The notes under the pieces are model-generated. The model saw only the letters and a program-made list of their open reading frames with translations. It ran no database searches and had not been told where the DNA came from. From a virus, in IMG/VR virus record IMGVR_UViG_3300044646_003076: 64,000 nucleotides of DNA. One strand, written 5' to 3'. The position numbers and the translations under genes were made by a program. Numbering within the stretch: the stretch's first letter is position 1; each line of letters opens with the position of its first letter. Below, one piece after another: positions 20,686 through 64,000 of this stretch.

Positions 20686-20822
20686 AGAAATTGAAAAACC
20701 GATTGATAACAAGATTCGCCAACATGAGATCAGAGTTGGATGGATTAGTGGTGTTATTGGCGCATTATTTACTTTTGGGGGTAATTCATGCTATCTGGTT
20801 GATTAAACAATGGATTCTTTGA
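20675..20822 (+). pseudogene. Small membrane protein with a probable +1 break at T4G5 (20773-20781)
   Basis: IRQHEIRVGWISGVIGALFT then hydrophobic LGVIHAIWLIK only in the +1 frame. Confidence 0.4.
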
Positions 20823-21229
20823 ATAATTCAGATATTATGGATATTTTTGATGATCCAAACACATCTCAAGAAACACTAAGAAAATTAGCGACTGATGAGA
20901 ATTGGGAGGTTCGTTTGCGATTAGCAGGACATCCAAACACACCACCAGAAACTTTAGAACATCTAGCCGTAGATAAGTGTTACACTGTTCGTATGAATGT
21001 GGCACATAATCTAAGGACATCAACAAAAACACTAAAATTATTGGCGGAGGATAAAGATTTTCGTGTTCGTTGGGCAGTAGCACTAAACCGAAACACACCA
21101 ATAAAAACACTAGAATTATTGGCGATGGATGAGGAGGCTGGTGTTCGTTATCGGGTAACAAATAACAAAATCTGCCCACATTATATCAAGAAGTTTCTTA
21201 AAATTCAAAAGCATCTGGCTAGATTATGA
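20810..21229 (+). CDS. LRV/HEAT-like repeat protein A (4 repeats plus C-cap)
   Basis: 26-aa xPNTxxxxLxxLAxDxxxxVRxxVAx repeats; ends YIKKFLKIQKHLARL. Confidence 0.9.
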   Translation: MDSLNNSDIMDIFDDPNTSQETLRKLATDENWEVRLRLAGHPNTPPETLEHLAVDKCYTVRMNVAHNLRTSTKTLKLLAEDKDFRVRWAVALNRNTPIKTLELLAMDEEAGVRYRVTNNKICPHYIKKFLKIQKHLARL

Positions 21230-21783
21230 GAAAAGTTAAACAAGCTAAAGATCCATACACTTCAACCGAAATTCTAGAACAACTAGCGACCGATGAGGAT
21301 TCTAGTGTTCGTTGGAATGTAGTACGTAATCCAAACACACCACCAGAAGCTCTAGAACAATTAGCGACTGACAAGAATCCTGGGGTTCGTTGGGAGGTAG
21401 CGAGAAATCCAAACACACCACCAGAAGCTCTAGAACAATTAGCGACTGACAAGAATCCTGGGGTTCGTTGGGCAGTAGCACTACATCCAAACACCCCACC
21501 AACAACATTAGAACTTCTAGCGACCGATGATGATGATTATGTTCGTCAGGGAGTAGCACTACATCCAAACACCCCACCAAAAGCACTAGAAATTCTAGCG
21601 ACCGATATGGATTATCGTGTTCGTTGGCGGGTAGCAAGATTACCAAATATACAACCAAAATTATTAGAAATCTTAGCTACCGATGAGAATCCATATGTTC
21701 GTATATGGCTAGCACAAAATCCAAACACACCACGCTACATCAAAAAGTATCTTAAAATTCAAGAACAACTTCAAAAATTATGA
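21226..21783 (+). CDS. LRV/HEAT-like repeat protein B (6 repeats plus C-cap)
   Basis: 78-nt in-frame repeats; ATGA overlap with A. Confidence 0.92.
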   Translation: MRKVKQAKDPYTSTEILEQLATDEDSSVRWNVVRNPNTPPEALEQLATDKNPGVRWEVARNPNTPPEALEQLATDKNPGVRWAVALHPNTPPTTLELLATDDDDYVRQGVALHPNTPPKALEILATDMDYRVRWRVARLPNIQPKLLEILATDENPYVRIWLAQNPNTPRYIKKYLKIQEQLQKL

Positions 21784-21911
21784 CGACTTCCTTTGATGAT
21801 AACGATCCACCACAGCTTAACTTTGATAAATTATACGAACGAATAAAACAACAAAGAATGGAAGAACTCTTTTCTGAGCCCTATGATGGTGATATGGAAG
21901 AAGAGGATTGA
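21780..21911 (+). CDS. Small acidic hypothetical protein (43 aa)
   Basis: Start supplied by the ATGA overlap at the end of repeat gene B. Confidence 0.5.
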   Translation: MTTSFDDNDPPQLNFDKLYERIKQQRMEELFSEPYDGDMEEED

Positions 21912-21919
21912 ATTTATTC

Positions 21920-21992
21920 GCTCGTCTAGCCATCCGGTGAAGGCAACGAACTCATAATTCGTAGGAGGTGGGTTCGATCCCCACGACGAGCA
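21920..21992 (+). tRNA. tRNA with CAU anticodon (elongator Met or lysidine-type Ile2)
   Basis: Acceptor GCTCGTC/GACGAGC; anticodon arm ACGAA-CTCATAA-TTCGT; T arm GTGGG-TTCGATC-CCCAC; G1:C72 pair excludes initiator type. Confidence 0.9.
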
Positions 21993-21996
21993 TTGT

Positions 21997-22054
21997 GTGA
22001 CAGTCAATAAACTGTACACAAATATCAACACTCTCAAGTGTTGTATGCTACTAT
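21997..22054 (+). promoter_or_regulatory. Dyad element plus extended -10 promoter
   Basis: GTGACAGT-N5-AACTGTACAC then TGCTACTAT. Confidence 0.6.
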
Positions 22055-22111
22055 AAAAACGGTCAAAAGACCAATTGTTCCTTTATCTATTTTTTCTCAT
22101 AATCGTTTAAA

Positions 22112-22339
22112 ATGACAAGAAAACCGTTTGATGGCAAGTTCAGTAAGGATATTCATATTCTTACTCGTGCAACTAAAGGAGAAGTCTATCTCGGCGACTA
22201 TCCCAAAATCATCAAAAAACTTAAACGTTATTTTACTGAGCAATATTCTGATATCCAATTCTATAATGAACCCGAATCCGATAATTTTTATTTATTGGAT
22301 CTGATTCGGAATGAACTAGAAATTGATGTAGTGGTGTGA
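22112..22339 (+). CDS. Conserved cyanophage hypothetical protein
   Basis: FSKDIHILTRATKGEVYL...LKRYF. Confidence 0.65.
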   Translation: MTRKPFDGKFSKDIHILTRATKGEVYLGDYPKIIKKLKRYFTEQYSDIQFYNEPESDNFYLLDLIRNELEIDVVV

Positions 22340-22342
22340 ATT

Positions 22343-22774
22343 ATGGATACCAATCTTTTTTGGAATCTGAGAGGTAATTATTCAGAACGTAAAGAAAAAC
22401 TTTCTAAGATGTCTCGTGAGTATTTGGAAGCCTCTGTCTTAGATTCATGTTATAATAACTTCATCACCAATATAGAGGAAAATAATACTACTGGCGTAAA
22501 GAGAATTCCTTATATTGGATGGTATTGGCGCCATGTAACATTTAGCGATTTTACCAATATCCGTATTGGAGATTGTGGTCAATTTGTTGGATTTATGGAG
22601 AGCAATAAGTGGGATCATCCAGAAAGATATCTTACCGAAGATGAGGGGTGTAGTATTATTGCATTTATTGATAATGCAATGAGAATTCAAGAGGGAGCTA
22701 GTTCCGAGACAACTCTTGATATCGTTCTTCAAAATCTATGGGATTATATGCAAACTTTGAAAATTGAAAGATGA
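22343..22774 (+). CDS. Hypothetical protein
   Basis: Packed ORF. Confidence 0.6.
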   Translation: MDTNLFWNLRGNYSERKEKLSKMSREYLEASVLDSCYNNFITNIEENNTTGVKRIPYIGWYWRHVTFSDFTNIRIGDCGQFVGFMESNKWDHPERYLTEDEGCSIIAFIDNAMRIQEGASSETTLDIVLQNLWDYMQTLKIER

Positions 22775-23135
22775 CTAATCTATTTGTAGGTGAATCCGAT
22801 TTCCGAGAATGGTTGGAAGCTAATAATTTTTGGATTTATTCCTCATATAAAGATGATCCATGGAATGAATGTAATTGGTATGCGTGTCGGCGGGTTGCCC
22901 CGGAAAGCCGAAGATGTGATTGTAATGATGAAAACCCGGATTACAATTGGTAATCAGGCCATATCATTCCACCTATTTTACTAATTCTAGAACTGCTACA
23001 TTTGAAATTATCGGGAAAACAAAAGGAATTTGGTATAATCTAACAGCTTATTCTATCAATATTGATGATGTTCCTGAAAAAATAGACGAAGTTTCAGAAT
23101 CACTTGCTCGCGCCTGGGAGGCTCTTGTTCTATGA
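22771..23135 (+). pseudogene. Single gene apparently split by a -1 break at AAAACCC (22931-22937)
   Basis: ...RRCDCNDE then KPGLQLVIRPYH in the -1 frame joins ORFs 22771 and 22947. Confidence 0.55.
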
Positions 23136-23275
23136 TACCAGAATTAATGATTCTTGGATTCCTATTGATTATTGCTTCTTTTTCTGGTAACGGAAGTAGT
23201 TCAATATCTTTTGAAAATAAAAATAAGCCAAAAGGGCCACCACTAAAATTTAAAAAAATCACAAAGGAAAAATAA

Positions 23276-23563
23276 ATGAGTAACACATTACATGTCTATG
23301 CACAGTCAGCACCACATGACAGTGTTTTTATCTGTGGAACTAAAGAATCACTAGAAAAACTAAGAGAAACATTAGATAATATTCTTACTGAAGATCTTAA
23401 GTTTGGTGCTTATGATGAGTTTACTAATGATGGCGAGGGATATAACGTACATATTGATTTGTTATCTGAAGAGAAAATGGAGCAGATGGCCGTTCCCTAT
23501 AGTGATGAGATTTTCTGGAATAATGAATCCAATAAAACAAAAGTGTATCCTTGGTATCTTTGA
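23276..23563 (+). CDS. Hypothetical protein
   Basis: HDSVFICGTKESLEKLR...FTNDGEGY pattern; Shine-Dalgarno AAGGA upstream. Confidence 0.65.
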   Translation: MSNTLHVYAQSAPHDSVFICGTKESLEKLRETLDNILTEDLKFGAYDEFTNDGEGYNVHIDLLSEEKMEQMAVPYSDEIFWNNESNKTKVYPWYL

Positions 23564-23597
23564 ATAATAATCACCAACAAATAATGAATTTTGTATT

Positions 23598-23855
23598 ATG
23601 GATTACGGATTAACGCCATATTGTTTATCAAGAAATCCAAACACACCACCAAAAGCCCTAGAACAACTAGCGACCGATGAGTGGGGTCCTATTCGTTGTT
23701 GGGTAGCACTAAACCCAAACACTCCACCAACAACATTAAAACAACTAGCAACCGATGAGGAATGGTATGTTCGTTGGGGTGTAGCACGAAATCCAAATAC
23801 TCCACGCTATCTCAAGAAGTATCTTAAAATTCAAGAACATTTGGTGAGATTATGA
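23598..23855 (+). CDS. LRV/HEAT-like repeat protein C (2 repeats plus C-cap)
   Basis: 26-aa repeats; ends YLKKYLKIQEHLVRL. Confidence 0.88.
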   Translation: MDYGLTPYCLSRNPNTPPKALEQLATDEWGPIRCWVALNPNTPPTTLKQLATDEEWYVRWGVARNPNTPRYLKKYLKIQEHLVRL

Positions 23856-24409
23856 ACAAATTTGAACAAGCTAGAGATCCAAATACACCACAAGAAGAGT
23901 TAGAGCGTCTAGCTACTGATGATGAGTATCTGGTTCGTTGTGGTGTAGCACGAAATCCATCCACACCAACAAAAGCCCTAGAACAACTAGCGACTGATAA
24001 GTGTGGTAATGCTCGTGAAGGAGTAGCAGATAATCCAAACACTCCACCAGAAATCCTAGAACAATTAGCGACCGATGAGGATTATTGGGTTCGTTGGAGA
24101 GTAGCACATAATCCAAACACACCACCAAAAGCCCTAGAACAACTAGCGACCGATGAGGATTCTAGTGTTCGTTATTGGGTAGCAGAAAATCCAAACACAC
24201 CACCAAAAGCTCTAGAACAACTAGAGACCGATGAGAATTCTGATGTTCGTTGGAGTGTAGCAGATAATCCAAACACACCACCAAAAGCTCTAGAACAACT
24301 AGCGACCGATGAGAATTCTGATGTTCGTTGGAGTGTAGCAGATAATCCAAACACTCCACGCTATCTCAAAAAGTATCTTAAAATTCAAGAACATCTAGCT
24401 AAATTATGA
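23852..24409 (+). CDS. LRV/HEAT-like repeat protein D (6 repeats plus C-cap)
   Basis: MNKFEQARDPNTP N-cap; 78-nt repeats; ATGA overlap. Confidence 0.92.
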   Translation: MNKFEQARDPNTPQEELERLATDDEYLVRCGVARNPSTPTKALEQLATDKCGNAREGVADNPNTPPEILEQLATDEDYWVRWRVAHNPNTPPKALEQLATDEDSSVRYWVAENPNTPPKALEQLETDENSDVRWSVADNPNTPPKALEQLATDENSDVRWSVADNPNTPRYLKKYLKIQEHLAKL

Positions 24410-24726
24410 ACGCTATGGAAAAAGAAGAACAACTTCAAAGATTAGAATCTTATTTTGATCGTATTAAAAACACTCTTGAATTATGTGGCCCAAGTCAGGA
24501 GTTTATTGAAGAAGTAAGAGAACTTTTAGGATTTTCTCATGTAATAAGTGGAGTTGCTTGCTCAGAATGTGATGGATCCGGATATAAAGTCTATGGTTCT
24601 ACTGCAGGATGGGCCGGAGGCATTGGTGGACAGACAATAACGACGAGTGTATGTGATTGTTGCTGGGGAAGTGGAAGAAGTGATAAAAAATTCGGAGATT
24701 TAAGAAAACTTAGATCCATGTCTTAA
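24406..24726 (+). CDS. Hypothetical protein with DnaJ-type CxxCxGxG motifs
   Basis: CSECDGSG...CDCCWGSG. Confidence 0.65.
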   Translation: MNAMEKEEQLQRLESYFDRIKNTLELCGPSQEFIEEVRELLGFSHVISGVACSECDGSGYKVYGSTAGWAGGIGGQTITTSVCDCCWGSGRSDKKFGDLRKLRSMS

Positions 24727-24737
24727 ATAGTTAAAAC

Positions 24738-24977
24738 GTGTATAATGGAAGAATGGACCGTTCAACTTTTTTACGCTACATAGGTAACATTTTTCTTATC
24801 GTTGGTTATTTCATTCTTCTTCATGTTGATATGACGGCTGGCCTTTTGATAAAATGCATCGGTGGTTTCTTGACTGTTCCGTTTGCTGTTAAATACAAAC
24901 TGTGGGATGTTGTCTTTATATGGGGCTTCTTCAGCTTTATTGAAATCGCCAAAATTATTGAATTGCTTACTAAATGA
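24738..24977 (+). CDS. Small membrane protein
   Basis: Multiple hydrophobic segments; TAAATA at 24724. Confidence 0.65.
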   Translation: MYNGRMDRSTFLRYIGNIFLIVGYFILLHVDMTAGLLIKCIGGFLTVPFAVKYKLWDVVFIWGFFSFIEIAKIIELLTK

Positions 24978-24980
24978 ACT

Positions 24981-25778
24981 ATGTTAGCTAATAACTCAAT
25001 AGGAAATCTCGGGAGACTCGGCAATCAAATGTTTCAATATGCTGCTCTTAGAGGAATAGCGGTGGAACATAATTATGAGTATTGTCTTCCACCATTGAAT
25101 TTCATTGCAACTCAAGATCCTAATTGTGCAACTAGCGATTGCACTATTTTTGATTGTTTTATGTTACCCGAAGCACCAAGACGACTGCTTTCTGGACCGA
25201 TTCTAGAAGAATCTTCTTTTGAGTTTGACAATAATCTATGGAATTCGTGTCCTGATAACGTTTCTCTTTATGGTTATTTTCAAAGCGAAAAATACTTTAA
25301 CCATATAAAAGAGAACATAAGAAACTCTTTTCGGTTCAAAGAAACTTCTGAAATATCTTATGCTTCTAGTTTCTTTAATGAGGAATTCAATAATACCTCA
25401 GTGATCTCCTTACACATTAGAAGAGGAGATTATCTTAAATACACTCATCATCCAACTCTTCCGATGAGTTATTATGAAGACGCTCTTAGTCAGTTGCCTG
25501 ATGTTCCAGTTTTTGTTTTTTCGGATGATGTGAATTGGTGTAAACAAGAAGTGTCATTTCGTTCGGATAGATTTTATATTTCAGAATCTAACAGTACGGC
25601 AGTTGATCTTTATCTTCAATCCAGATGTAGTCATCATATTATTGCAAACAGTTCCTTTAGTTGGTGGGGAGCGTGGTTAGCTAAAAGTCAAAAAGTTATT
25701 GCACCGAAGCAATGGTTCGGACCACCACTAACACATAATACAAAAGATCTTTACTGTGAGGATTGGATTCAATGCTAA
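24981..25778 (+). CDS. Alpha-1,2-fucosyltransferase-like (GT11)
   Basis: GRLGNQMFQYA, GYFQSEKYF, LHIRRGDY, IIANSSFSWWGAWL. Confidence 0.92.
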   Translation: MLANNSIGNLGRLGNQMFQYAALRGIAVEHNYEYCLPPLNFIATQDPNCATSDCTIFDCFMLPEAPRRLLSGPILEESSFEFDNNLWNSCPDNVSLYGYFQSEKYFNHIKENIRNSFRFKETSEISYASSFFNEEFNNTSVISLHIRRGDYLKYTHHPTLPMSYYEDALSQLPDVPVFVFSDDVNWCKQEVSFRSDRFYISESNSTAVDLYLQSRCSHHIIANSSFSWWGAWLAKSQKVIAPKQWFGPPLTHNTKDLYCEDWIQC

Positions 25779-26389
25779 TTTCATTATCTGAAATGATAAC
25801 AAAATATAATATGAATATTCGGGGTGTTATTCATATTGGCGCTCATTATGGCGAAGAGGTTCCCGAATACATTAAAAATGGAATTTCTGAACTTCATCTG
25901 TTTGAACCTCTGTCGGAAAACTATAAAATTTTAAGGAATAATCTCCAAGACCTAAAGATTAATTGGGCAACTTATCACTGTGCATTGGGAAATAAAAACG
26001 AAAGAGTTACAATGTTTGTTAGTGATAACCAACAACAAAGTAGCTCAATTCTTTCACCGAAAGATCATCTAACACATCATCCAAATGTGAGATTTCCTAC
26101 AACGGAAGAAGTTTTAGTCACTACTTTGGACTCTCAAGAAATTGAAAATTGTAACTTCATTAATATGGATGTGCAGGGTTATGAGTTGGAAGTTCTTAAA
26201 GGTGCATCTAAAACTTTAGAACATGTTGAATATGTTTATTGTGAAGTCAATAGAGCCGAAGTTTATGAAAATAATGCTTTCGTAGAAGAGATTGATGAGT
26301 TCCTTTCTCAATACAATATGATCAGAGTGGAAACAGATTGGGCAGGAGAAATCTGGGGTGATGCACTTTATGTGAGAACCGAGAGATGA
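25763..26389 (+). CDS. FkbM-family SAM methyltransferase
   Basis: VIHIGAHYGEE, FEP, NMDVQGYELEVLKG. Confidence 0.9.
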   Translation: MDSMLISLSEMITKYNMNIRGVIHIGAHYGEEVPEYIKNGISELHLFEPLSENYKILRNNLQDLKINWATYHCALGNKNERVTMFVSDNQQQSSSILSPKDHLTHHPNVRFPTTEEVLVTTLDSQEIENCNFINMDVQGYELEVLKGASKTLEHVEYVYCEVNRAEVYENNAFVEEIDEFLSQYNMIRVETDWAGEIWGDALYVRTER

Positions 26390-27024
26390 AAACTTTAAAT
26401 GATTATTTTGATGAGATTTATTGTATTAATCTTGATAGACGAGTAGATCGTTGGAAACAAGTAGAACAAGAGTTTATTAAACATTCAATAACAGTTAATC
26501 GTTATTCTGCTATTGATGGTCAAGAACTCAATATGGGATTATTTTCATATTCAACAAACTTTGAGACTCCCGGACAATTAGCGTGTTTTATCTCACACTA
26601 CAATATCATAAAAACTGCAAGATATAAAAATCTTTCTTCTGTTCTTATTCTTGAAGATGATGTCGTATTTTCTGAAAATTTTGATTCTCAATTAGAGCAG
26701 AAGATGCCAGATGTTCCCGAAAATTGGGATATGCTTTTCTTTGGTGCCAATCATATTAGTGGTCCGATCCGAATCACAGATAATGTTTATAAGATGACAA
26801 GAGCTTATTCTGCACACTGTTATGCGATTAAGAATACGATGTTTGATATTCTTCTAGAACATCTTTGTCAATTCCGAGAACCTCTAGATGTCGTTTATGC
26901 TAATTTACAATCATCTATCAATTCTTATGTTCTTAATCCTCATTTAGTATGGCAGAATCCTGGATATTCTGATATCTGCGAACAGTCAGTAGATTATACA
27001 CACGTTCATAAAATTTCATTTTGA
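26386..27024 (+). CDS. Glycosyltransferase family 25
   Basis: CINLDRRVDRW, ACFISHY, LILEDD. Confidence 0.88.
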   Translation: MKTLNDYFDEIYCINLDRRVDRWKQVEQEFIKHSITVNRYSAIDGQELNMGLFSYSTNFETPGQLACFISHYNIIKTARYKNLSSVLILEDDVVFSENFDSQLEQKMPDVPENWDMLFFGANHISGPIRITDNVYKMTRAYSAHCYAIKNTMFDILLEHLCQFREPLDVVYANLQSSINSYVLNPHLVWQNPGYSDICEQSVDYTHVHKISF

Positions 27025-27671
27025 CTATGTACGATAACGTAACACTCGTTTTAACAAGTTGTGGAAGATTAGATCTTCTAGAACAAACTATCAATTCAAT
27101 TAGTAAAGGTGTATTGTATAATATTCCAACAAAAATTATTGTAGACGATTCTACAGACCCCGAAGTTTATAAAAATATCAAAAAAGCTTCTTATTTAAGA
27201 GGATGGAAGAAAATTCTCAATAAAGAAAAATTGGGACAAGCTGCTTCTATTGACAGTGCTTATGCTTATGTCAAGACCGATTATGTCTTCCATTGCGAAG
27301 ATGATTGGCATTTTGATGACTTTGATTTTGTTGGTCCATCATTGAGTATTCTGGAGAAATATGATAATCTGGTTCAAGTGACCTTCAGAAAAGATTCACC
27401 TCATCCTACACATGAAGAGATCTACGAAAAAGAGGAAAATCCTTTTAAGGTTCTGATTCCAGGATATAATGGGTGGCCAGGATTTACTTATAATCCAAAT
27501 ATCTTTCGTTTTTCTGCATATAAAAAATTGGGTTCTTGTGCTGGAATGTCTGAAAAAGATGTTGGAATCTTTTATAAAGATAATCAACTTTATACTGCTG
27601 CACTTGAGACTCGTGTTGTCTCTCATCTTGGTGATGGCAGACACGTTTATGATACAATTAGCGGAGTTTGA
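27021..27671 (+). CDS. Glycosyltransferase (GT-A fold)
   Basis: TSCGRLDLL, IIVDDS, FHCEDDW, HLGDGRH. Confidence 0.8.
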   Translation: MTMYDNVTLVLTSCGRLDLLEQTINSISKGVLYNIPTKIIVDDSTDPEVYKNIKKASYLRGWKKILNKEKLGQAASIDSAYAYVKTDYVFHCEDDWHFDDFDFVGPSLSILEKYDNLVQVTFRKDSPHPTHEEIYEKEENPFKVLIPGYNGWPGFTYNPNIFRFSAYKKLGSCAGMSEKDVGIFYKDNQLYTAALETRVVSHLGDGRHVYDTISGV

Positions 27672-27674
27672 ATT

Positions 27675-28430
27675 ATGAAAAAGGTTGCAGCCTTGATGAT
27701 GGTAAAAGATGAGATTGATATTATTGAACAAAATATTCACTATCTTTTAACTCAAAATCTTGATTTTGTGTGTGTCTATGATAACGGTTCAACCGATGGA
27801 ACACGACAGAAGTTAGACGACTTAGCTTATTTTTATGAAGAGGAATTATTGGTATTTGATGATCCAGAAACAGGATATTATCAATCAACGAAGATGAATA
27901 ATTGGGCAAACGAACTCTTTCAAGATGATGTAGATGTTGTTATTCCTATTGATGCTGATGAGATTTGGTACTCAAAGAATCCAAATTATACTCTAGGTGA
28001 AATCATAAGAAATACTGATGCAGATATTTTTGTTGCAGATTCGGTGGATTATATTCCAACTGTTTTTGATGACTTTAATGAGAGAAATTTTATTCAAAGA
28101 ATGAAACAACGAAAAGTCAATTCAAATTCTTTTTCAGCCGTTGCATTTAATTATAGTCCGGGATTTTATCTTGAAATGGGTAACCATGATGTGCATAATC
28201 ATTCGGGAAAAAGAGTTCACGATAAAATTGGTATTCGGCATTATCAATATCGTACTTTTGACCAATTTGCAAAAAAAGTTCGCAATGGAAAGAAAGCATA
28301 TGATGCAACAACTCTTCCTGATTTTATGGGAAGCCACTGGAGAAAACTGGGTGCGATGGATGATTCTGAACTCAGAAAATACTGGGTGGATTATTGTTCG
28401 GTAGAAACTGTTGAGGATCCAGTTGTATGA
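27675..28430 (+). CDS. Glycosyltransferase family 2-like
   Basis: MVKDEIDII, YDNGSTDGT, IDADE. Confidence 0.85.
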   Translation: MKKVAALMMVKDEIDIIEQNIHYLLTQNLDFVCVYDNGSTDGTRQKLDDLAYFYEEELLVFDDPETGYYQSTKMNNWANELFQDDVDVVIPIDADEIWYSKNPNYTLGEIIRNTDADIFVADSVDYIPTVFDDFNERNFIQRMKQRKVNSNSFSAVAFNYSPGFYLEMGNHDVHNHSGKRVHDKIGIRHYQYRTFDQFAKKVRNGKKAYDATTLPDFMGSHWRKLGAMDDSELRKYWVDYCSVETVEDPVV

Positions 28431-29128
28431 CTAGATTATCAATAGCTATTCCAACATATAATTATCATGGTAAAGGTGAACAGTTTCTTGACGATCTTCT
28501 AAGAACTATCCAGATACAAACTTTTAAGGATTTTGAGGTAGTTATATCAGACCATAGCGAAGACGAAAATATCAAAAGCAAGGCAGAGGAGTATTCAGAT
28601 TTTTTCTCCGTCAAATACCTTACAAACACTGAAAAGCGTGGTAACAGTCCTGCTAACTTGAATCATGCAATTTCTCACTGCACTGGAGAAATTATCAAGC
28701 CTATGTTTCAAGATGATTTCTTTTATGATGATGAGGCATTAGCCAAGATTTATTATAATCTAGCTGGAGATCGCAATAAATTCTGGCTTCTTAACGGAAC
28801 TAATCATACGAGAGATAACGGCCACACATTTTTCTGGAATCTTTTTCCGAGATTTAATCCGAATCTTCTAACTGGAGTAAACACAATAAGTTCACCATCT
28901 GTTGTTGCATATAAGAGAGAAGTTGAAATTAAATTTGATGAAGATTTGGTTTACTTGATGGATATTGATTTTTATTATAATATGAGAGAAACTTATGGTG
29001 AACCAATTTATTATGATGATATCTTGGTAACAAATAGAATTCATCCTGATAGCATCTCTAGCACATTAAAAAACAGAGATGAATTACTTCAAAAAGAATC
29101 CATTTATTGTAAAGAAAAATATGATTGA
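28427..29128 (+). CDS. Glycosyltransferase family 2
   Basis: SIAIPTY, EVVISDHS, FQDD. Confidence 0.88.
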   Translation: MTRLSIAIPTYNYHGKGEQFLDDLLRTIQIQTFKDFEVVISDHSEDENIKSKAEEYSDFFSVKYLTNTEKRGNSPANLNHAISHCTGEIIKPMFQDDFFYDDEALAKIYYNLAGDRNKFWLLNGTNHTRDNGHTFFWNLFPRFNPNLLTGVNTISSPSVVAYKREVEIKFDEDLVYLMDIDFYYNMRETYGEPIYYDDILVTNRIHPDSISSTLKNRDELLQKESIYCKEKYD

Positions 29129-29705
29129 TTTTATTGTACCTAGTATTGGGCGAGAAACAATTACTCGTTCATTAAATTCGTTGATCCAACAAACTGATTC
29201 AGATTGGAGATGTTTTGTTGGATTTGATGGTTTATCAAAAGATCAGATTGATTCCGATCTTCTGATTGATGATTCAAGAATTCACTATCTCTATTTGAAA
29301 GAAAAATTGGGAACCTCATCTTTTCATGGTAATGCTGGAAGAGTGAGAAATAAGATTATTGAATCTATTGACACTCCATCTGAATGGATTGGATTTCTGG
29401 ATGACGATGACTCTCTTTCATCATATTATGTTGAAATTTTAAAACGACAGATGACATTAGATGAATCAGATTGTTATGTGTTTCGTATGAATAATAATGG
29501 TGTAATTATTCCATCTTATGATATGAATGAACTGCGGCAGAATCATGTCGGTATTTCCTTTTGTCTTAAAAGTTCATTCTTGAGACAAAAAAATCTTCAA
29601 TTCCAGAATGATAATGCCGAAGATTTTCTGTTTTTACAGAACATTAAAGAACAAGATGGTGTTATTAACATTCTTCCTTATGTCGGTTATTTTGTGGGAA
29701 TCTAA
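29079..29705 (+). CDS. Glycosyltransferase family 2-like (true start probably ~29120)
   Basis: FIVPSIGR, SLIQQTDSDW, FLDDDD, AEDFLFL. Confidence 0.8.
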   Translation: MNYFKKNPFIVKKNMIDFIVPSIGRETITRSLNSLIQQTDSDWRCFVGFDGLSKDQIDSDLLIDDSRIHYLYLKEKLGTSSFHGNAGRVRNKIIESIDTPSEWIGFLDDDDSLSSYYVEILKRQMTLDESDCYVFRMNNNGVIIPSYDMNELRQNHVGISFCLKSSFLRQKNLQFQNDNAEDFLFLQNIKEQDGVINILPYVGYFVGI

Positions 29706-30493
29706 TGGACAGAAACAAAGCATCATATAAACTTCAGGGATTTGGTCCGGTTTATTATATTAATCTTGATGATCAAGAAGATCGGAGAACTTTTATGGAA
29801 GCTCAGTTTAACTACTGGGAGATAAAAAACTATGAGAGAATTTCGGCCTTTGATGGTAGAAACAGTGATTTAAGTGAATATATTGTTGGAAAATATCCAG
29901 AAGGAATCACAACAGCGGAACTTGGTTGTACTCTTTCACATTTGAAAGCTATTAAACATTGGTATGAGACTTCTACGAGTCCTTATGCTATTATTTGTGA
30001 AGATGATGGTCTTATTGACATTTCGAAATATTGGAATTTTACATGGCAAGAATTTATCTCTAGAGTTCCTTATTGTTGGGATTGTCTGCAGCTGGCAATA
30101 ATCTCAACGGGGAATATTTCGGTGAATATTCATAATCGCTTTGTCAACAGTTTTTCAACTGCGGTTTATTGTATTAACCGTCGTTATGCCGAAAAGTTGA
30201 TTCATTTTCATTGTAGAGGTGATAAGTTCATCTTGGATCAAAATATTAAACCGAGAGCTGTTGCCGACGATTTAATCTATAATGGTGGTCTGACATTTTC
30301 AACACCTTTATTTCTTTATGAGTTGCGTCTTGGTAGTTCTATTCACGATGAACATATTGAGGTGTTTCATAAAAATTCTTATAATGGAGTTCTTGCTTTC
30401 TGGCAGAATGAAGGAAAGGAACTAACAGTAGATCAGATCACTAATTTTGATCCTTACTTCAATAAGATCAGTAATCCAACTCCGACCGAGTGA
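29705..30493 (+). CDS. Glycosyltransferase family 25-like
   Basis: YINLD...RR, GCTLSHLKAI, IICEDD. Confidence 0.85.
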   Translation: MDRNKASYKLQGFGPVYYINLDDQEDRRTFMEAQFNYWEIKNYERISAFDGRNSDLSEYIVGKYPEGITTAELGCTLSHLKAIKHWYETSTSPYAIICEDDGLIDISKYWNFTWQEFISRVPYCWDCLQLAIISTGNISVNIHNRFVNSFSTAVYCINRRYAEKLIHFHCRGDKFILDQNIKPRAVADDLIYNGGLTFSTPLFLYELRLGSSIHDEHIEVFHKNSYNGVLAFWQNEGKELTVDQITNFDPYFNKISNPTPTE

Positions 30494-30542
30494 CAATTCG
30501 TAAACTGGACCGCTTGACAAACGGTTGTTCCTATGCTACGGT
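30490..30542 (+). promoter_or_regulatory. Dyad element plus TTGACA and extended -10
   Basis: GTGACA-N7-AACTGGACC, TTGACA, TGCTACGGT. Confidence 0.6.
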
Positions 30543-30600
30543 GTACCCGAACCTCAAAAGTTCAAACTAAATACTTATTCGTAATGAATGAGTGAAATCT

Positions 30601-30662
30601 AAGAGCCGTGGATGTTGGCCTTCTGGGAAGTTGGCAGTGACACTTCATCTAACACGGATGCC
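30601..30662 (+). ncRNA. Candidate structured RNA in the rlpA leader
   Basis: CCGTG/CACGG and GATG/CATC nested stems with inner GCC-TTC...GAAG..GGC hairpin; GC-rich patch in an AT-rich intergenic region; late promoter at 30568. Confidence 0.4.
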
Positions 30663-30679
30663 GAATTCTATTCAAATTA

Positions 30680-31147: not shown

Positions 31148-31148
31148 G

Positions 31149-32099: not shown

Positions 32100-32111
32100 G
32101 AAAAACGCTTC

Positions 32112-32405
32112 TTGTTTATGATCGGCTTTATTACGAAGGATGGATATGCAGCAGTTCCTTATGGTAAACAATTAATGATAATTTTTAACAACGAACAGTT
32201 AGAAGTTGTTAAGACGATTAAACAAGCAGAGTTATTCATCAATAATCATAAAGCCGGTCCACAAACTGCCACACCAAAACTCAGAACACCTAAAAAATCT
32301 GCTATGGTAGACGCTACTGATATAAAAACTCAAAATGGAAAAGAAAAGAGTAGTAAAATTAAGACAAGCAAAAGCAACTCAAGACGAAGTAAAAAACTTG
32401 TGTGA
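32112..32405 (+). CDS. Conserved cyanophage hypothetical protein
   Basis: GFITKDGYAAVPYGKQLMII; TAAATA at 32093. Confidence 0.7.
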   Translation: MFMIGFITKDGYAAVPYGKQLMIIFNNEQLEVVKTIKQAELFINNHKAGPQTATPKLRTPKKSAMVDATDIKTQNGKEKSSKIKTSKSNSRRSKKLV

Positions 32406-32875: not shown

Positions 32876-32876
32876 A

Positions 32877-33312: not shown

Positions 33313-33320
33313 GAACACAG

Positions 33321-33932: not shown

Positions 33933-33934
33933 AA

Positions 33935-34147: not shown

Positions 34148-34569
34148 TTCTTTTTCTTCTACCTATCCGTATTCGTGAAGAGATGACACTAAATCCAAAC
34201 ACACCAACAAAAGCTCTAGAACAACTAGCGACCGATGAGGATTCTTGGGTTCGTTGTTGTGTAGCACTAAACCCAAACACACCACCAGAAGCTCTAGGAC
34301 AATTAGCGACTGATGAAAATCCTAATGTTCGTTATTGGGTAGCAGAAAACCCAAACACACCACCAGAAGCTCTAGGACAATTAGCGACTGATAAGAATCC
34401 TTATGTTCGTTATTGGGTAGCAGAAAACCCAAACACACCAATAAAAATCCTAGAACAACTAGCTACCGATAAGGATTCTCTGGTTCGTCGTGGTGTTGTA
34501 CAAAATCCAAACGCACCTCACTATCTCAAGAAGTATCTTAAAATTCAAGAACAACTGGCGATGTTATGA
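34144..34569 (+). CDS. LRV/HEAT-like repeat protein E (4 repeats plus C-cap)
   Basis: 78-nt repeats; TTGA overlap with the upstream stop. Confidence 0.88.
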   Translation: MILFLLPIRIREEMTLNPNTPTKALEQLATDEDSWVRCCVALNPNTPPEALGQLATDENPNVRYWVAENPNTPPEALGQLATDKNPYVRYWVAENPNTPIKILEQLATDKDSLVRRGVVQNPNAPHYLKKYLKIQEQLAML

Positions 34570-35051
34570 ACAAATTTGAACAAGCTGGAGATCCAAACAC
34601 TCAACCAAAAACCCTAGAACAACTAGCGACTGATGAGGAATATTTGGTTCGTTGTTGTGTAGCAAATAATCCAAACTCTTCACCCAAAACTCTAGAGCTT
34701 CTAGCGACCGATGAGGATTATCGTGTCCGTATTGTTGTAGCAGAAAATCTAAACACTCCACTAGAAATCCTAGAACAACTGGCAACCGATGAGAATTCTG
34801 GTGTTCGTTATAATATAGCAAATAATCCAAACACACCACCAAAAGCCCTAGAACAACTAGCGACCGATAGGTATTATGAGGTTCGTTGGAGGGTAGCATG
34901 TAATCAAAACATTCCACCAAAAGCTCTAGAACAACTAGCGACCGATGGGAATTGGGATGTTCGTTGTGAAGTAGCACTAAACCCAAACACACCACATTAC
35001 ATCAAAAAGTATATTAAAATTAAACAATACCTATCATGTCTACATTTTTAA
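34566..35051 (+). CDS. LRV/HEAT-like repeat protein F (5 repeats plus C-cap)
   Basis: MNKFEQAGDPNT N-cap; 3' end overlaps the glutaredoxin start. Confidence 0.9.
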   Translation: MNKFEQAGDPNTQPKTLEQLATDEEYLVRCCVANNPNSSPKTLELLATDEDYRVRIVVAENLNTPLEILEQLATDENSGVRYNIANNPNTPPKALEQLATDRYYEVRWRVACNQNIPPKALEQLATDGNWDVRCEVALNPNTPHYIKKYIKIKQYLSCLHF

Positions 35052-36031: not shown

Positions 36032-36043
36032 AAATAAACAATT

Positions 36044-37440: not shown

Positions 37441-37998
37441 ATGAACGAACTTGACCAGGCTATAGATCCTAACACACCATCAACAATATTAGAACAACTA
37501 GCGACCGATGAGGATTGTGGTGTTCGTTGTTGTGTAGCACAAAATCCAAACACTTCATCAGAAATTCTAGAACAACTAGCAACTAATGATGAATGGTATG
37601 TTCGTTATTATGTATCATATAATCCAAACACATCACCGACAACATTAGAAGTTCTAGCGACAGATGAGGAATATTGGGTTCGTCGTGATGTAGCGTGTCA
37701 TTCAAACACACCACCAACAACATTAGAACAACTAGCGACCGATGTGTATTCTAATGTTCGTCATGGTGTAGCAGATAATCCAAATACTCCACCAAAAGTC
37801 TTAGAAATTCTAGCGACCGATGAGGAATATTGTGTTCGTTGGAGAGTAGCAGATAATCCAAACACACCACCAAAAATCTTAGAACAACTAGCGACCGATG
37901 ATGATTGGGATGTTCGTTGGAGGGTAGCAGGAAATCCAAACACACCACACTATATCAAGAAGTATCTTAAAATTCAAGAACATTTGGCTAGATTATGA
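37441..37998 (+). CDS. LRV/HEAT-like repeat protein G (6 repeats plus C-cap)
   Basis: 78-nt repeats; ends YIKKYLKIQEHLARL. Confidence 0.92.
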   Translation: MNELDQAIDPNTPSTILEQLATDEDCGVRCCVAQNPNTSSEILEQLATNDEWYVRYYVSYNPNTSPTTLEVLATDEEYWVRRDVACHSNTPPTTLEQLATDVYSNVRHGVADNPNTPPKVLEILATDEEYCVRWRVADNPNTPPKILEQLATDDDWDVRWRVAGNPNTPHYIKKYLKIQEHLARL

Positions 37999-38306: not shown

Positions 38307-38600
38307 ATGATCAAATCGTATCTTGACCAACAACAGAATAATTGGAGAGAATATTGTAATAATTTTCTTTTAGCCGAAAATCCAAACACTTCACCTGAAA
38401 TCCTAGAACAACTAGCGTCTGATGAGAGTTTTTATGTTCGTCGCTGTGTAGCGAGTCATCCAAACACACCACCAAAAGTCCTAGAACAACTAGCGACCGA
38501 TGAGGAATATTATGTTCGTTGGAGTGTAGCACTAAATCCAAACACACCACGCTATCTCAAAAAATATCTTAAAATTCAAGAACATCTAAAAACATTATAA
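38307..38600 (+). CDS. LRV/HEAT-like repeat protein H (2 repeats plus C-cap)
   Basis: 26-aa repeats; ends YLKKYLKIQEHLKTL. Confidence 0.88.
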   Translation: MIKSYLDQQQNNWREYCNNFLLAENPNTSPEILEQLASDESFYVRRCVASHPNTPPKVLEQLATDEEYYVRWSVALNPNTPRYLKKYLKIQEHLKTL

Positions 38601-38625: not shown

Positions 38626-39378
38626 ATGATCGGTAAACTACTAGAATCTATTAATAAGCTTCTGCCAAAAAAACAAAATAGCAAAAGTGATCCAGAATTA
38701 CCAAAAGTAAAACTCGTCTCCATTACTCGGGGTGTTGGAGATCTTATGAATACTAGCGCCCAGGAAGTTATTTCATATATTGCCAGAGTGAGTAATCCAA
38801 ATAATCAACTCAATTTTGATACAGCAGAGGGTCTTATTCGTTATTGTATTAAAAACAAACATGTGAGCATTTTTGAACATGCTTATATGACTCTTGAGAT
38901 TAATACAACGAGAGCTATTGCAGCTCAGATTTTAAGACATAGAAGTTTCACATTTCAGGAATATAGTTTACGGTATATGGACATAACCGCTCTTTCCGAT
39001 AATCCATTAATTCCTGAACTAAGACGACAAGATAATAAGAATCGGCAAAATTCTATTGATGATTTTTCCGAAGATGAGCAATTAAAAATGCAAAAAGAGA
39101 TTCAGCAGTATTTTGATACTGGTATGAAGCTTTATGAAAAATTACTCTCAAACGGTGTCGCAAAAGAGTGTGCAAGATTTATTCTGCCATTATCAACTCC
39201 AACAAGAATTTATATGACGGGTAACGTAAGATCCTGGATAACTTATATTGCTCTTAGAGAAAAAAATGGAACTCAGAAGGAACATAAGGACATCGCCAAG
39301 GCATGTAAAGAAATCTTTGCGGAGCAGTTTCCAACCTGTTATGAGGCTCTCGGAGGAGACGAAGAATGGGCTATCTAG
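38626..39378 (+). CDS. thyX: Flavin-dependent thymidylate synthase
   Basis: RHRSFTFQEYSLRY (RHRx7SxR) motif; SIFEH; ARFILP. Confidence 0.96.
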   Translation: MIGKLLESINKLLPKKQNSKSDPELPKVKLVSITRGVGDLMNTSAQEVISYIARVSNPNNQLNFDTAEGLIRYCIKNKHVSIFEHAYMTLEINTTRAIAAQILRHRSFTFQEYSLRYMDITALSDNPLIPELRRQDNKNRQNSIDDFSEDEQLKMQKEIQQYFDTGMKLYEKLLSNGVAKECARFILPLSTPTRIYMTGNVRSWITYIALREKNGTQKEHKDIAKACKEIFAEQFPTCYEALGGDEEWAI

Positions 39379-40298
39379 AATACTTACAACAATACCGTGA
39401 AAAATATCATTTAGATGATATCTTCAATCACGATAATAGCGCCGATGAAGAACAAGTAACGGAGTATATTGGGGAATTATGTGGATGGTCTGGCGAATTC
39501 CTTTGTTTGTGGTATGGCGAACATAGGGACAAATATTACAAAAGTGGAAGGTCGTTTCCGGCCAATATCTATAGGTTTATTGTAAAAAATAGTGTATTAG
39601 AAAATACTCTTAAAAAACCGAAGGACATTGATTATCTTACCAGATTCTTAGTAACAACATTAGATCATCCTGATTGTCTTATTTTAGATTCAATCGCAAA
39701 AGAGAATAATCCATTAATAAACAAAAACATCTCACGCCACAAGAATACATCTAGCGACACTTTATTGTATCTTGCATCTTATAGTTTCCTTGGATTTAAT
39801 ATTTTTAATAATAAAAATTCAAATGATGATGTTTTATTGGAAGTAACTAATACCATATTGCGCGATTTAAGCAATAAAATTTACGAGGATATAATTCCAG
39901 AAAATGGGGACTGGGGAATTGATCAAGATATAGAAAGTTACATTAGAGAATATAAGCCCGGATTTCACTTCGTTCGTCATAGAACCTTAGATAAAATGGA
40001 ATGGGTCGCCCAGCATTTTAAAATCACCGAAAGTATTTGTAATAAAATTATTTCGGCAGATCAGGAAACACTAAAAACTTTAGAATGGTATCACATTTTT
40101 TATGCTATGGGTCGGAATCCTTTTACACCAGAAACAATTTTAGAAATACTTTCTGAACGGAAACCCTTGACTACATTTAAACCCTCAAGCCTAATCGGCG
40201 TTCTTGAAAATCCCAATGCACCCGAGCATATATTAGAAAAACATTTAGATCATTACCCCAATATAAAACATTGGAGATATGTTAATTTCGGAAAATAA
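39366..40298 (+). CDS. Hypothetical protein with degenerate LRV-like motifs
   Basis: SRHKNTSSDTLLYLA, GRNPFTPETILEILS, LENPNAPEHIL. Confidence 0.6.
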   Translation: MGYLEYLQQYREKYHLDDIFNHDNSADEEQVTEYIGELCGWSGEFLCLWYGEHRDKYYKSGRSFPANIYRFIVKNSVLENTLKKPKDIDYLTRFLVTTLDHPDCLILDSIAKENNPLINKNISRHKNTSSDTLLYLASYSFLGFNIFNNKNSNDDVLLEVTNTILRDLSNKIYEDIIPENGDWGIDQDIESYIREYKPGFHFVRHRTLDKMEWVAQHFKITESICNKIISADQETLKTLEWYHIFYAMGRNPFTPETILEILSERKPLTTFKPSSLIGVLENPNAPEHILEKHLDHYPNIKHWRYVNFGK

Positions 40299-62275: not shown

Positions 62276-63032
62276 AACTACAAATAATATTCTAATCACT
62301 AGAGAATATGGCGAAAAGGATTGTTCTGATCCGGTTATAACAGGAATTCCATCAAATCGTTTTGATTTTGTGTTGAAGCCATATAATGCCGATTTAGAAG
62401 ATATATCTTCAGAATTAAATATTGATCCTCCTTGTGATCTTTGGTATTATTATAACATGAAGGTGGGTTCACTAAAGGCATTAGAAGATGTTAATGTTGA
62501 TGGAGAAGTTACTGCCGTTGGTGAAGTGTCATCCAATAATGGAATTCATGTTCTGTCAAATAAGAAAAATTTACCCTTTGATATGCCTCATCCTAATAAA
62601 AAAGGATGGAGATTAAGGCATGTTTGTATTGAAGGTCCCGAAATCGCTGTTTATTGTAGAGGTGAAATAAATGAAACCGGAATTATTGATTTGCCTTCTT
62701 TCTGGGACGGTTTGGTAAATCTTGATGATATGACCATAAATATCACACCTATTGGTCATTGGCAAGAATTATTCGTTGAACATATCAATAAAAATAAAAA
62801 ACAAGTCATCATTAAAAATAATAACGGTACCAAAATTCGGGCAAATTATCATATTGTTGCAAGAAGATTAGATGATGATCTTATTGTAGAATATCAAGGT
62901 GAAAATTATACAGATTATCCAAAAGGAAATGAAGGATATTCTTTTAATTATGAACATTCTTATGTTGAAAATTTAATCAAAGAACAAATTAAGAGAGAAA
63001 TAAAAAATGCAAGTAACAAGAGAAGTCAGTGA
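62268..63032 (+). CDS. Tail-associated protein, paralogue 2
   Basis: KKNLPFDMPHPNKKGWRLRHVCIEGPE.AVYCRG domain. Confidence 0.65.
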   Translation: MVETTNNILITREYGEKDCSDPVITGIPSNRFDFVLKPYNADLEDISSELNIDPPCDLWYYYNMKVGSLKALEDVNVDGEVTAVGEVSSNNGIHVLSNKKNLPFDMPHPNKKGWRLRHVCIEGPEIAVYCRGEINETGIIDLPSFWDGLVNLDDMTINITPIGHWQELFVEHINKNKKQVIIKNNNGTKIRANYHIVARRLDDDLIVEYQGENYTDYPKGNEGYSFNYEHSYVENLIKEQIKREIKNASNKRSQ

Positions 63033-63162
63033 CGATCTTATCGCACTACAAGAAGATATCGCGGCTCATTTCTGTGAAGATAACTTTCCTATGAGTGGTG
63101 AATTGTATTGGACTTTAGTTGAATCTATTGCCACTGCAAAGCTATCGGAAATTACATCTTGA
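63007..63162 (+). CDS. Small cyanophage hypothetical protein (not in ORF track)
   Basis: LQEDIAAHFCEDNFPMSGELYWTLVESIATAKL. Confidence 0.65.
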   Translation: MQVTREVSDDLIALQEDIAAHFCEDNFPMSGELYWTLVESIATAKLSEITS

Positions 63163-63218
63163 CCACTTTACGAACTGTCACTAGGTAACTCCAAAATCCA
63201 TCAGGATGTGTTAAGATT
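63160..63218 (+). promoter_or_regulatory. Dyad element plus extended -10 promoter
   Basis: TGACCA-N7-AACTGTCAC then TGTGTTAAGAT. Confidence 0.55.
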
Positions 63219-63241
63219 GATTCATCTTCGTATTTGAAGTA

Positions 63242-63439
63242 ATGAAAATCTCAAAAACAAATATTCAAGCTCAATATAATGAACTATTAGATCAAGGTCT
63301 AGAGGATTGGGAAGCTAGAACTACAATTATCAATGATATGATTTCATTGGAACCCACATCAGAACATTTTGTGGGAAATCCTGGAGATTCTGAATATTAT
63401 TTCACAATCCAAACCATTTGGAATCTATGTAATCTATGA
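63242..63439 (+). CDS. Hypothetical protein
   Basis: Packed ORF. Confidence 0.55.
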   Translation: MKISKTNIQAQYNELLDQGLEDWEARTTIINDMISLEPTSEHFVGNPGDSEYYFTIQTIWNLCNL

Positions 63440-63645
63440 GACCCGAAACTCGTGAAGCTATGGAGAATCTCTTTGGTGCAAAATGGAATGTACCAAAAGC
63501 GGCGGATTATTGTAATCTCACCAACAAAGAGTGTAAAATTGTCTTTAATGAATATTGTCGCCTAAATCCTCCAACATATGTTCAAGAAAGTTCTTTTGAT
63601 CTACTTGTGTTATCTCATTCTGATGATGTGAAAGATGAATCTTGA
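63436..63645 (+). CDS. Conserved cyanophage hypothetical protein
   Basis: MRPETREAMENLF.AKWNVPKAA..CNLT.KE.KI.F. Confidence 0.72.
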   Translation: MRPETREAMENLFGAKWNVPKAADYCNLTNKECKIVFNEYCRLNPPTYVQESSFDLLVLSHSDDVKDES

Positions 63646-64000
63646 TAATAAAAGCGATATCATACATGATGACATTGAAAGTCTTTCATTGGATGATAGA
63701 ATTAATCTGGCATATAATCCAAACACCCCACCAACAACATTAGATCAACTAGCTACTAATGAGCATTATTGGGTTCGTTATTGGGTAGCACAACATCCAA
63801 ACACACCACCAAAAGCCCTAGAACAACTAGCGACCGATGAGGAATATTATGGTATTCGTCGTGAAGTAGCACAAAACCGAAACACACCACCAAAAGTCCT
63901 AGAACAACTAGCGACCGATGAGGAATATTATGGTATTCGTCGTGAAGTAGCACAAAACCGAAACACACCACCAAAAGTCCTAGAACAACTAGCGACCGAT
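63635..64000 (+). CDS. LRV/HEAT-like repeat protein I (runs off the window; not in ORF track)
   Basis: Hand translation MNLDNKSD...LAYNPNTPPTTLDQLATNEHYWVRYWVAQHPNTPPKALEQLATDEEYYGIRREVAQN...; includes 81-nt/27-aa variant repeats. Confidence 0.88.
   Translation, partial: MNLDNKSDIIHDDIESLSLDDRINLAYNPNTPPTTLDQLATNEHYWVRYWVAQHPNTPPKALEQLATDEEYYGIRREVAQNRNTPPKVLEQLATDEEYYGIRREVAQNRNTPPKVLEQLATD

Follow-up and report, generated by a model that had tools for sequence, protein, structure and literature searches.

What use could a phage have for 24 genes built from one short helical repeat, whose copies keep a common scaffold and vary strongly at a few fixed positions? The question is raised by IMG/VR viral record IMGVR_UViG_3300044646_003076, 179,526 bp in length and estimated to be 83% complete, of which bases 81046–145045 constitute the stretch of 64,000 nucleotides analyzed here (the window). 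The phage is a T4-like myovirus with a G+C content of 35%, and the window encodes gp32, PhoH, ThyX, SpeD, glutaredoxin, glycosyltransferases, and a baseplate/tail block, together with nine genes made of LRV repeats. A sequence-only reading of the window had noticed this gene family and taken it for a natural library of small binders; the observation is confirmed and extended below, and its structural and evolutionary interpretation is supported. The best explanation, to which we would give slightly better than even chances, is that the genes constitute a rapidly diversifying family of capped LRV/HEAT-like solenoid binders, acting on host proteins inside the infected cell.

All nine window genes match the Pfam LRV family, PF01816, with scores of 57–147 bits against a curated cut-off of 21.6 bits (E 1e-15 to 2e-44), and weaker matches to HEAT, HEAT_2, and LRV_2 overlap those to PF01816, in agreement with the LRV/HEAT-like character assigned to the proteins beforehand. 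Each of the nine frames is open where it had been placed, and the earlier count of about 38 complete units is reproduced by a recount of ~38–39, with the family extending well beyond the window. In a PF01816 scan of the whole record, 75 repeats match at E <= 0.001; one of these falls short of the cut-off, and some of the others exceed it only after summation with adjacent repeats in the same frame. Reading of the frames gives 24 LRV genes, all of them open, with ~102 in-register units, and the LRV frames add up to ~11.1 kb and occupy ~6% of the record. The unit is 26 residues (78 nucleotides) long in ~100 copies and 27 residues long in two. Many of the genes are arranged in translationally coupled pairs or quartets with a stop/start overlap ATGA, and the downstream members of such groups begin with MNK[FL]EQA. 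N-termini are otherwise diverse (MNKFEQA.., MDSLNN.., MTLNPNTP..), a conserved C-terminal helix, NPNTP[RH]Y[IL]KKY[IL]KIQEHLAxL, closes most genes, and a Pfam scan of the phage LRV proteins found no second domain. The neighbors of most copies are accessory metabolic genes (SpeD, ThyX, glutaredoxin, glycosyltransferases) rather than those of the head block. A scan of promoters and terminators returned 70 promoter-like sites where 75 were expected, and is thus uninformative.

The ~102 units are divided into conserved and variable positions in a regular manner. Per-site entropy reaches 2.1–3.5 bits at unit positions 16–19, 22, 23, and 26, is intermediate (1.2–2.2 bits) at positions 1, 5–8, and 11, where substitutions are mostly conservative, and does not exceed 1 bit at 13 scaffold positions. 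The alternation is sharp toward the end of the unit, with 2.7–3.5 bits at positions 18, 19, 22, 23, and 26 versus at most 0.8 bits at positions 20, 21, 24, and 25. The variable positions 17–19, 22–23, and 26 proposed earlier are thus borne out by the entropy profile, which also includes position 16. The accompanying statement that the scaffold is almost fixed even at the DNA level needs softening: the choice of synonymous codons is indeed specific to position (GCG at Ala13 and GCA at Ala25; CCA in 81 of 86 cases, GTT in 90 of 92, CGT in 93 of 95, and GTA in 86 of 92), but the mean pairwise nucleotide identity between units is just 80% at scaffold codons, compared with 50% at variable codons. 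Third-base identity at scaffold codons encoding the same residue is also 80%, and scaffold identity is equal within genes (0.806) and between genes (0.800). The position-specific codon choice reflects common descent or homogenization, not codon bias.

The fold was modeled with AlphaFold2 for the 185-residue protein encoded at 23852–24406, with an alignment of 14 rows. The model (predicted local distance difference test score, pLDDT, 97.2; predicted template modeling score, pTM, 0.89) consists of six helix pairs, each with a 7-residue helix A (positions 6–12) and a 9-residue helix B (positions 18–26), between an N-cap helix and a 15-residue C-terminal helix, and the protein is accordingly predicted to be a capped α-solenoid. 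In a Foldseek search, the LRV protein of Azotobacter vinelandii (1LRV) ranks first (E 8e-7, template modeling (TM) score 0.66), followed by the HEAT repeats of PP2A-A and by many alphaRep entries (TM 0.65–0.74). In helix B of the model, the conserved V20, R21, V24, and A25 occupy one arc, with variable residues 18, 19, 22, 23, and 26 placed opposite. The expectation that the variable sites share one helix face is therefore borne out by the modeled span of helix B, and these residues would face the solvent and line up, from one helix B to the next, in an unbroken stripe running the length of the rod. In 1LRV, long helices make up the outer layer. Prediction of a complex between the products of the coupled pair 23598–23852 and 23852–24406 gave a score of 0.14, below the mark.

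The composition of the variable sites is strongly biased. Compared with the rest of the phage proteome, W is enriched there 10.3-fold, C 6.8-fold, and Y 3.1-fold, in line with the aromatic enrichment noted beforehand, with T, A, V, I, F, P, and K under-represented (2- to 20-fold for K, I, F, and T). Such a composition is the opposite of what drift would be expected to produce in a genome with 35% G+C. The variable codons are connected by one-step networks, for example at position 18 (TAT-TCT-CCT/TGG) and position 22 (TAT-TGT-TGG-CGT). A one-step path from TAT (Tyr) to TGG (Trp) that avoids a stop codon has to pass through Cys, which explains much of the excess of Cys at the variable sites; a metal or redox role for these residues was set aside in view of this.

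Pairwise counts of substitutions point to different selective regimes in the two classes of codons. With the Nei–Gojobori method applied to all unit pairs, the ratio of nonsynonymous to synonymous distances (dN/dS) is 0.50 in the scaffold, with dS of 0.37, and 2.0 at the variable codons, with dN of 0.91 and dS of 0.45; across the pairwise analyses, the within-class ratio at the variable codons is 1.8–2.0. Variation at these sites would thus not be neutral by this measure, with the reservation that all of these values are indicative rather than formal because pairwise counts ignore recombination. Division of dN at variable codons by dS of the scaffold gives 2.4 over all unit pairs and 5.4 (bootstrap interval 4.3–6.9) for nearest-neighbor units, the latter value being inflated because neighbors were picked by scaffold similarity, which lowers the scaffold distance. 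Some unit pairs have 0 of 57 differences in the scaffold and yet 3–14 of 21 differences in the variable codons.

Turnover of the repertoire becomes visible in one of the sister contigs that IMG/VR contains from the same lake series (L004/L018; L004 is IMGVR_UViG_3300044591_001885), the flanking genes of which are 93–98% identical to window positions 24191–43559. At the LRV loci, identity falls to 74–88%, with indels of whole units and with extra genes. The orthologue of the gene at 34183..34569 has the same number of units with changed variable residues in three of the four, that of 34566..35051 has two units versus five here, and that of 37441..37998 has five versus six. Following the orthologue of 38307..38600, and before ThyX, the sister carries ~2.8 kb of additional LRV genes that are absent from the window genome, including a 748-residue open frame (stop to stop; L004:9992–12235) consisting almost entirely of LRV units, some of them degenerate, and two small LRV genes. 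Where syntenic orthologues have the same number of units, differences affect 57 of 98 variable codons (58%) and 37 of 266 codons of the scaffold (Fisher p 2e-16). The repertoires themselves are clearly not identical, since just 8 of the 102 unit signatures of the sister loci recur among the 95 of the window genome. Two other short stretches, window 31595–32456 and 41357–41884, are 62–87% identical between these sisters; they contain fast-evolving accessory genes.

These observations bear on the simplest alternative, in which no specific binding takes place and the proteins are generic solenoids (spacers, scaffolds, or chaperone-like proteins), with variable sites that are merely unconstrained surface and a scaffold homogenized by gene conversion. 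Concerted evolution alone can make a scaffold look fixed, and the within-class dN/dS at the variable codons is just ~2 and sensitive to saturation. The composition of the variable sites is, however, not neutral for an AT-rich genome (W up 10-fold and C 7-fold, with the depletions given above), turnover at these sites is far above the divergence of the flanks, and the maintenance of 24 intact genes in 6% of the genome, together with parallel expansions in other lineages, argues for selection. We consider this alternative quite improbable.

How the diversity arises can be judged from the way in which units differ. Between sister orthologues, units are either unchanged or replaced wholesale, and nucleotide-identical half-unit cassettes recur in varied combinations, one of them, EDSS, being found in five genes with five different partners. 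Diversification thus combines point change with recombination of units and half-units. Targeted mutagenesis of the variable codons, by a diversity-generating retroelement (DGR) or another hypermutation system, would be a different source. Many variable codons keep their third base (NNT), which superficially resembles the AAY-templated variation of DGRs, and the unit pairs with no scaffold difference and up to 14 differences in variable codons might be taken in the same sense. A search of the record, at its 83% completeness, for a reverse transcriptase (PF00078) found none, though, and substitutions at the variable codons are not adenine-specific, with TGG, TGT, and CGT all abundant. There are, moreover, ~100 dispersed targets without a template repeat, and the gene at 37441–37998 did not change between samples of 2020 and 2024, the 2020 contig being identical to the window over 37406–37984 (579 nucleotides), which covers the larger part of the gene. 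On the strength of the missing reverse transcriptase, the lack of adenine specificity, and the stability of this gene, somatic hypermutation is rejected as the source, and we attach next to no probability to targeted mutagenesis of any kind. The resemblance to phage DGRs, such as that acting on Mtd of BPP-1, would be limited to a phage-encoded hypervariable surface, with ligand binding putative for the LRV proteins; a DGR creates diversity in a single gene, whereas the diversity of the LRV family is carried in the germline and spread over many genes.

Repeat arrays of this kind are prone to misassembly from short reads (PMC11761791), which raises the possibility that the arrays are chimeras of reads from many related phages. 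Logan contigs (k=31) of four lake metagenomes do stop at every LRV gene (window 34085–35169, 37340–37990, and 38425–38641), and the summed Logan depth at these genes is ~20-fold that of the flanking DNA, the extra letters originating mostly from paralogous contigs. Against this stand independent Logan contigs from several samples that reproduce large parts of the LRV genes, hundreds of bases at a time, without a single difference, sister contigs that carry intact, capped, and syntenic yet different genes, and the fact that all 24 frames are open. An artefact could alter the order of units but neither the existence of the family nor its site pattern, and as an account of the family it is extremely unlikely. 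Because contigs break at LRV genes, metagenome assemblies made from short reads are likely to split families of this type into fragments and to underestimate their number.

In the architecture of the proteins, an N-cap, often MNKFEQA, is followed by 2–8 units of 26 residues and by a C-terminal capping helix (..YIKKYLKIQEHLAxL); L9, L12, V20, V24, and A25 form the core, the NPNTP turn joins consecutive units, and helices A and B stack into a rod. Loop residues 16–17 and the outer side of helix B (18, 19, 22, 23, and 26) jointly make up one uninterrupted hypervariable stripe, in which W, Y, C, R, S, and G abound. This stripe is most likely a ligand-binding surface, by which each paralogue would recognize a different partner. 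The lack of a signal peptide, membrane segment, anchor, or enzyme domain, and the location of the genes among accessory genes, suggest that the partners are most plausibly host proteins met in the infected cell, the purpose being either take-over of the host or counter-defense; a target in host defense would be plausible. One-step codon changes at the variable sites would be retained by positive selection, and whole units or half-units are duplicated, deleted, or replaced between paralogues, a process of concerted evolution that also keeps the scaffold uniform throughout the genome. The accessory context, the absence of a signal peptide, anchor, or enzyme domain, a surface composition like that of antibody sites, and the extreme turnover are the reasons for reading the family as a germline repertoire of binders under diversifying selection, which most probably act on host proteins within the infected cell.

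The charge of the proteins bears on another possible type of ligand. The isoelectric point (pI) was computed for 20 LRV genes; in 17 of them it is 4.5–6.7, the net charge being as low as -15, and in the other three it is 8.6–9.0. If the repeats were a modular nucleic-acid code of the TALE, PUF, or PPR type, positions 22, 23, and 26 (i, i+1, i+4) of a unit would serve to recognize a single base or a few. The spacing of these positions is that of PUF repeats, PUF codes draw on C, S, N, Y, R, Q, and E, stacking on bases is possible for Y, W, and R, and near-identical DNA repeats that are hypervariable at a few sites are also a property of TALE arrays; some JGI homologues even bear the name of AlkC, a DNA-binding HEAT-like protein. 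Those names are, however, automatic labels, the acidity of most members is the reverse of what is found in known nucleic-acid-binding solenoids, and D15, E16, and D17 are located directly beside the variable stripe, making recognition of nucleic acids very improbable. The idea that the proteins mimic DNA was dropped in view of the span of pI from 4.5 to 9.0 across paralogues.

A binding function might also be exerted from the virion, if the proteins were packed in the head and injected like the internal proteins of T4, or displayed as adhesins for host glycans. Surfaces rich in W, Y, and R are typical of carbohydrate binding as well, the member starting at 63635 adjoins the baseplate and tail module, and the phage encodes a leader resembling the T4 capsid-targeting one, MKTFRQFITEA, on another protein. 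No LRV gene, on the other hand, bears such a leader (MKTYQEFIAE-like in T4 internal proteins), and the diverse N-termini form the N-cap helix in the model; signal peptides and anchoring domains are absent from the LRV proteins, and most copies are found among accessory metabolic genes rather than in the head block. We therefore regard a virion-borne role as unlikely, and prefer binders that act within the cell. The leader itself starts a 144-residue open reading frame (ORF) located outside the window, at genome position 435 on the minus strand, and an ORF at genome position 61749 begins with MKTFKQFLEM.

Several points weigh against an intracellular binder repertoire. The exposure of the variable sites is deduced from helix periodicity and from the secondary structure read out of the model, and aromatic residues on the surface could serve to stabilize the stacking between repeats instead of binding. 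Assembly from short reads might also have altered the order of units within individual genes (PMC11761791). Functional leads were not obtained from PADLOC, with a single spurious sub-threshold match (DruM at 20 bits), from PHROGs, with one weak match to an unknown family, or from NCBIfam, in which the match to NblB (17 bits versus a cut-off of 300) is not meaningful. A cyanobacterial host is uncertain: the closest cultured relatives by gp32, Synechococcus phages B3 and B23, are only distant (66% amino-acid identity), and a search for psbA in the phage found none. The locus is present in lake-water metagenomes sampled from 2020 to 2024; the 24 runs listed as containing it (as contigs) are all lake-water, freshwater, or unspecified metagenome DNA, with no RNA run among them. 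A near-identity DNA search of GenBank phages with window 20000–40000 gave no match, and a scan of genome contigs returned just two matching records, a contig of a Prevotella metagenome-assembled genome (MAG) and a contig labeled Klebsiella, which provide no clue to the host of the phage.

Comparison with systems that are already described places the family between several of them. By sequence, the phage proteins are true members of the family of the A. vinelandii LRV protein (1LRV, PF01816, LRV_2 PF25591) and have the same short two-helix solenoid. They differ from it in being small, stand-alone, and capped, with units of 26 residues and without the N-terminal Fe-S domain, as well as in the presence of 24 paralogues with a hypervariable stripe. 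We know of no function for the LRV family itself, and membership in it consequently explains little. TALE repeats are, like the phage units, near-identical at the DNA level and hypervariable at a few residues; they read DNA and are basic, whereas the phage proteins are mostly acidic. The ankyrin families of poxviruses, giant viruses, and intracellular bacteria comprise many paralogous binders that engage host proteins, sometimes through a constant C-terminal adaptor. They resemble the LRV family in the multitude of paralogous repeat proteins encoded by a parasite, and differ from it in that the C-terminal helix of the phage proteins looks like a cap. To our knowledge, ankyrin families have not been reported with a fixed scaffold and fixed variable sites, and neither these nor TALEs come from phages.

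Other close counterparts are the alphaRep proteins and the HEAT-like repeats of the Mth187 type (3LTJ, 4JW2, 6BZX), which are likewise capped α-solenoids (TM 0.65–0.74) and have in common with the phage units the helix-B motif D-E-D-x-x-V-R-x-x-[VA]-A-x. The sequence-only reading had stated that alphaRep libraries randomize positions 18, 19, 22, 23, 26, and 30, and this is correct, the positions lying on the concave binding face (PMC3754942); the phage sites 18, 19, 22, 23, and 26 coincide with the randomized ones. The phage unit differs in having 26 residues instead of 31, no site at position 30, variation in loop 16–17 as well, and abundant Cys and Trp, in addition to being natural and phage-encoded, with binding putative. 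On account of the unit length, the phage proteins are not members of the alphaRep subfamily, even if they may work alike.

A counterpart in the mode of evolution is provided by the high-internal-conservation (HIC) repeats of fungal NLRs, such as the WD40 repeats of HET-E and HET-D in Podospora, in which the number and order of repeats change by recombination between paralogues and which are similarly kept alike by concerted evolution (PMC11761791). The phage units show the features used to define this class, with conservation at synonymous sites, a few codons at which dN exceeds dS, and polymorphism of repeat number and order between close strains. Their scaffold identity of ~80% at the nucleotide level is lower than that of whole repeats in HNWD genes, which is 80–100% (PMC11761791), and they form an α-solenoid, not a β-propeller. 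Furthermore, the fungal repeats are sensor domains fused to the NTPase of a cellular immune receptor, whereas the phage proteins are free-standing and viral. The suggestion that no phage system of this kind has been described is upheld in so far as literature searches for LRV or PF01816 in conjunction with phage or cyanophage, and for phage multigene families of HEAT repeats, found nothing relevant in the library searched, in particular no paper linking LRV to phages; the evolutionary mode, on the other hand, is known from the fungal NLR repeats.

LRV families are by no means limited to this phage. Five other viral contigs contain 45–63 LRV matches each, and other viral lineages (L003, L005, L011, L014, L016, and L019) have LRV multigene families of their own, each with a lineage-specific conserved C-terminal cap. 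L014 and L016 (viral records of 110–145 kb, rated complete) have a cap that is also present in a Prevotella MAG from the gut, on a contig of 196 kb (L019, L020), showing that LRV expansion is not confined to lake phages. Among metagenome proteins, 17,481 cluster representatives match LRV at E <= 1e-3, many of them all-LRV giants of more than 1000 residues with no other domain. The notion that the phage proteins are decoys of NLRs is unsupported, the large bacterial homologues being all-LRV, without an NTPase or effector domain in Pfam. In a tblastn search of GenBank phages with one LRV protein, the sole match was Moorella phage MTATph1, with 31% identity, offering no functional lead. A second LRV subtype, with a longer N-terminal helix domain and the tail ..KQQKEALKKLI..SQ..LK.INL, is encoded outside the window at genome 172121–172585 and at L002:18126–18746; its features are common to many metagenomic homologues, for example P0002, P0021, and P0034.

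We can speculate that several unrelated lineages of large phages, from T4-like phages of lakes to Prevotella-associated phages of the gut, maintain germline combinatorial libraries of capped LRV binders, which positive selection and the shuffling of units would renew by the time genomes have diverged by a few percent, with paralogues that neutralize or redirect host proteins, defense sensors among them; this wider proposal is possible, and we hold it tentatively, with clearly less confidence than the binding function in the phage considered here. If the proteins are binders, they would represent a strategy of the phage arms race that is not yet described, in which a fast-renewing repertoire of small recognition proteins is spread over many genes on one scaffold, different from single dedicated anti-defense proteins and from receptor-binding proteins varied by DGRs. 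The family evolves in the manner of the hypervariable repeats that act as sensors in cellular NLRs, but on the side of the parasite, and would be their viral counterpart. Sister genomes that are ~95% identical and have nearly non-overlapping repertoires would offer a way to tie signatures of variable residues to host strains or defense systems. For binder engineering, the family would provide a ready-made natural scaffold of the alphaRep type, 85–235 residues long and confidently predicted, with ~100 naturally tested unit variants per genome. The breakage of metagenome assemblies at LRV genes suggests that such families are probably under-reported.

Table 1. LRV genes of the window and one doubtful relative (window coordinates; aa, amino acids; the start codon is uncertain where two are given).
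Feature	Position	Strand	Description	PF01816 E-value
LRV gene	20810..21229	+	139 aa, 4 units; N-terminus unique, helical C-cap; overlaps the next gene of its tandem pair by ATGA	9.6e-21
LRV gene	21226..21783	+	185 aa, 6 units; C-cap ends ..KIQEQLQKL	2.6e-39
LRV gene	23598..23855	+	85 aa, 2 units; first of tandem pair	1.3e-15
LRV gene	23852..24409	+	185 aa, 6 units (last two near-identical); N-cap MNKFEQA, C-cap; modeled protein	2e-44
LRV gene	34183..34569	+	128 aa from ATG 34183 (141 aa from TTG 34144), 4 units	5.5e-33
LRV gene	34566..35051	+	161 aa, 5 units	1.6e-30
LRV gene	37441..37998	+	185 aa, 6 units; start at ATG 37441 or alternative TTG 37426	9.7e-36
LRV gene	38307..38600	+	97 aa, 2 units	2.5e-16
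LRV gene, 5' part	63635..64000	+	full gene 233 aa, 8 units (two of 27 aa); runs past the window, ends at genome 145381 = window 64336	5.9e-28
Doubtful relative	39366..40298	+	310-aa ORF, no Pfam match; 1–2 degenerate LRV-like C-terminal units (hhalign 79%, 16 columns)	

Most of the sequence of the doubtful relative is missing from the sister contig. Open frames of 114–143 residues run through the LRV arrays on the minus strand (20835–21179, 21302–21658, 34564–34995, and similar ones); they most likely arise incidentally from the repeating pattern of codons and are not genes. Between two groups of LRV genes, at window 24981–30493, there are approximately seven ORFs that read as sugar-modifying enzymes, the first of which, the only one scanned, matches glycosyltransferase family 11. 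This run is followed by a DPBB lytic-transglycosylase-like protein (30680–31147) and then by an NlpC/P60 protein (31149–31604).

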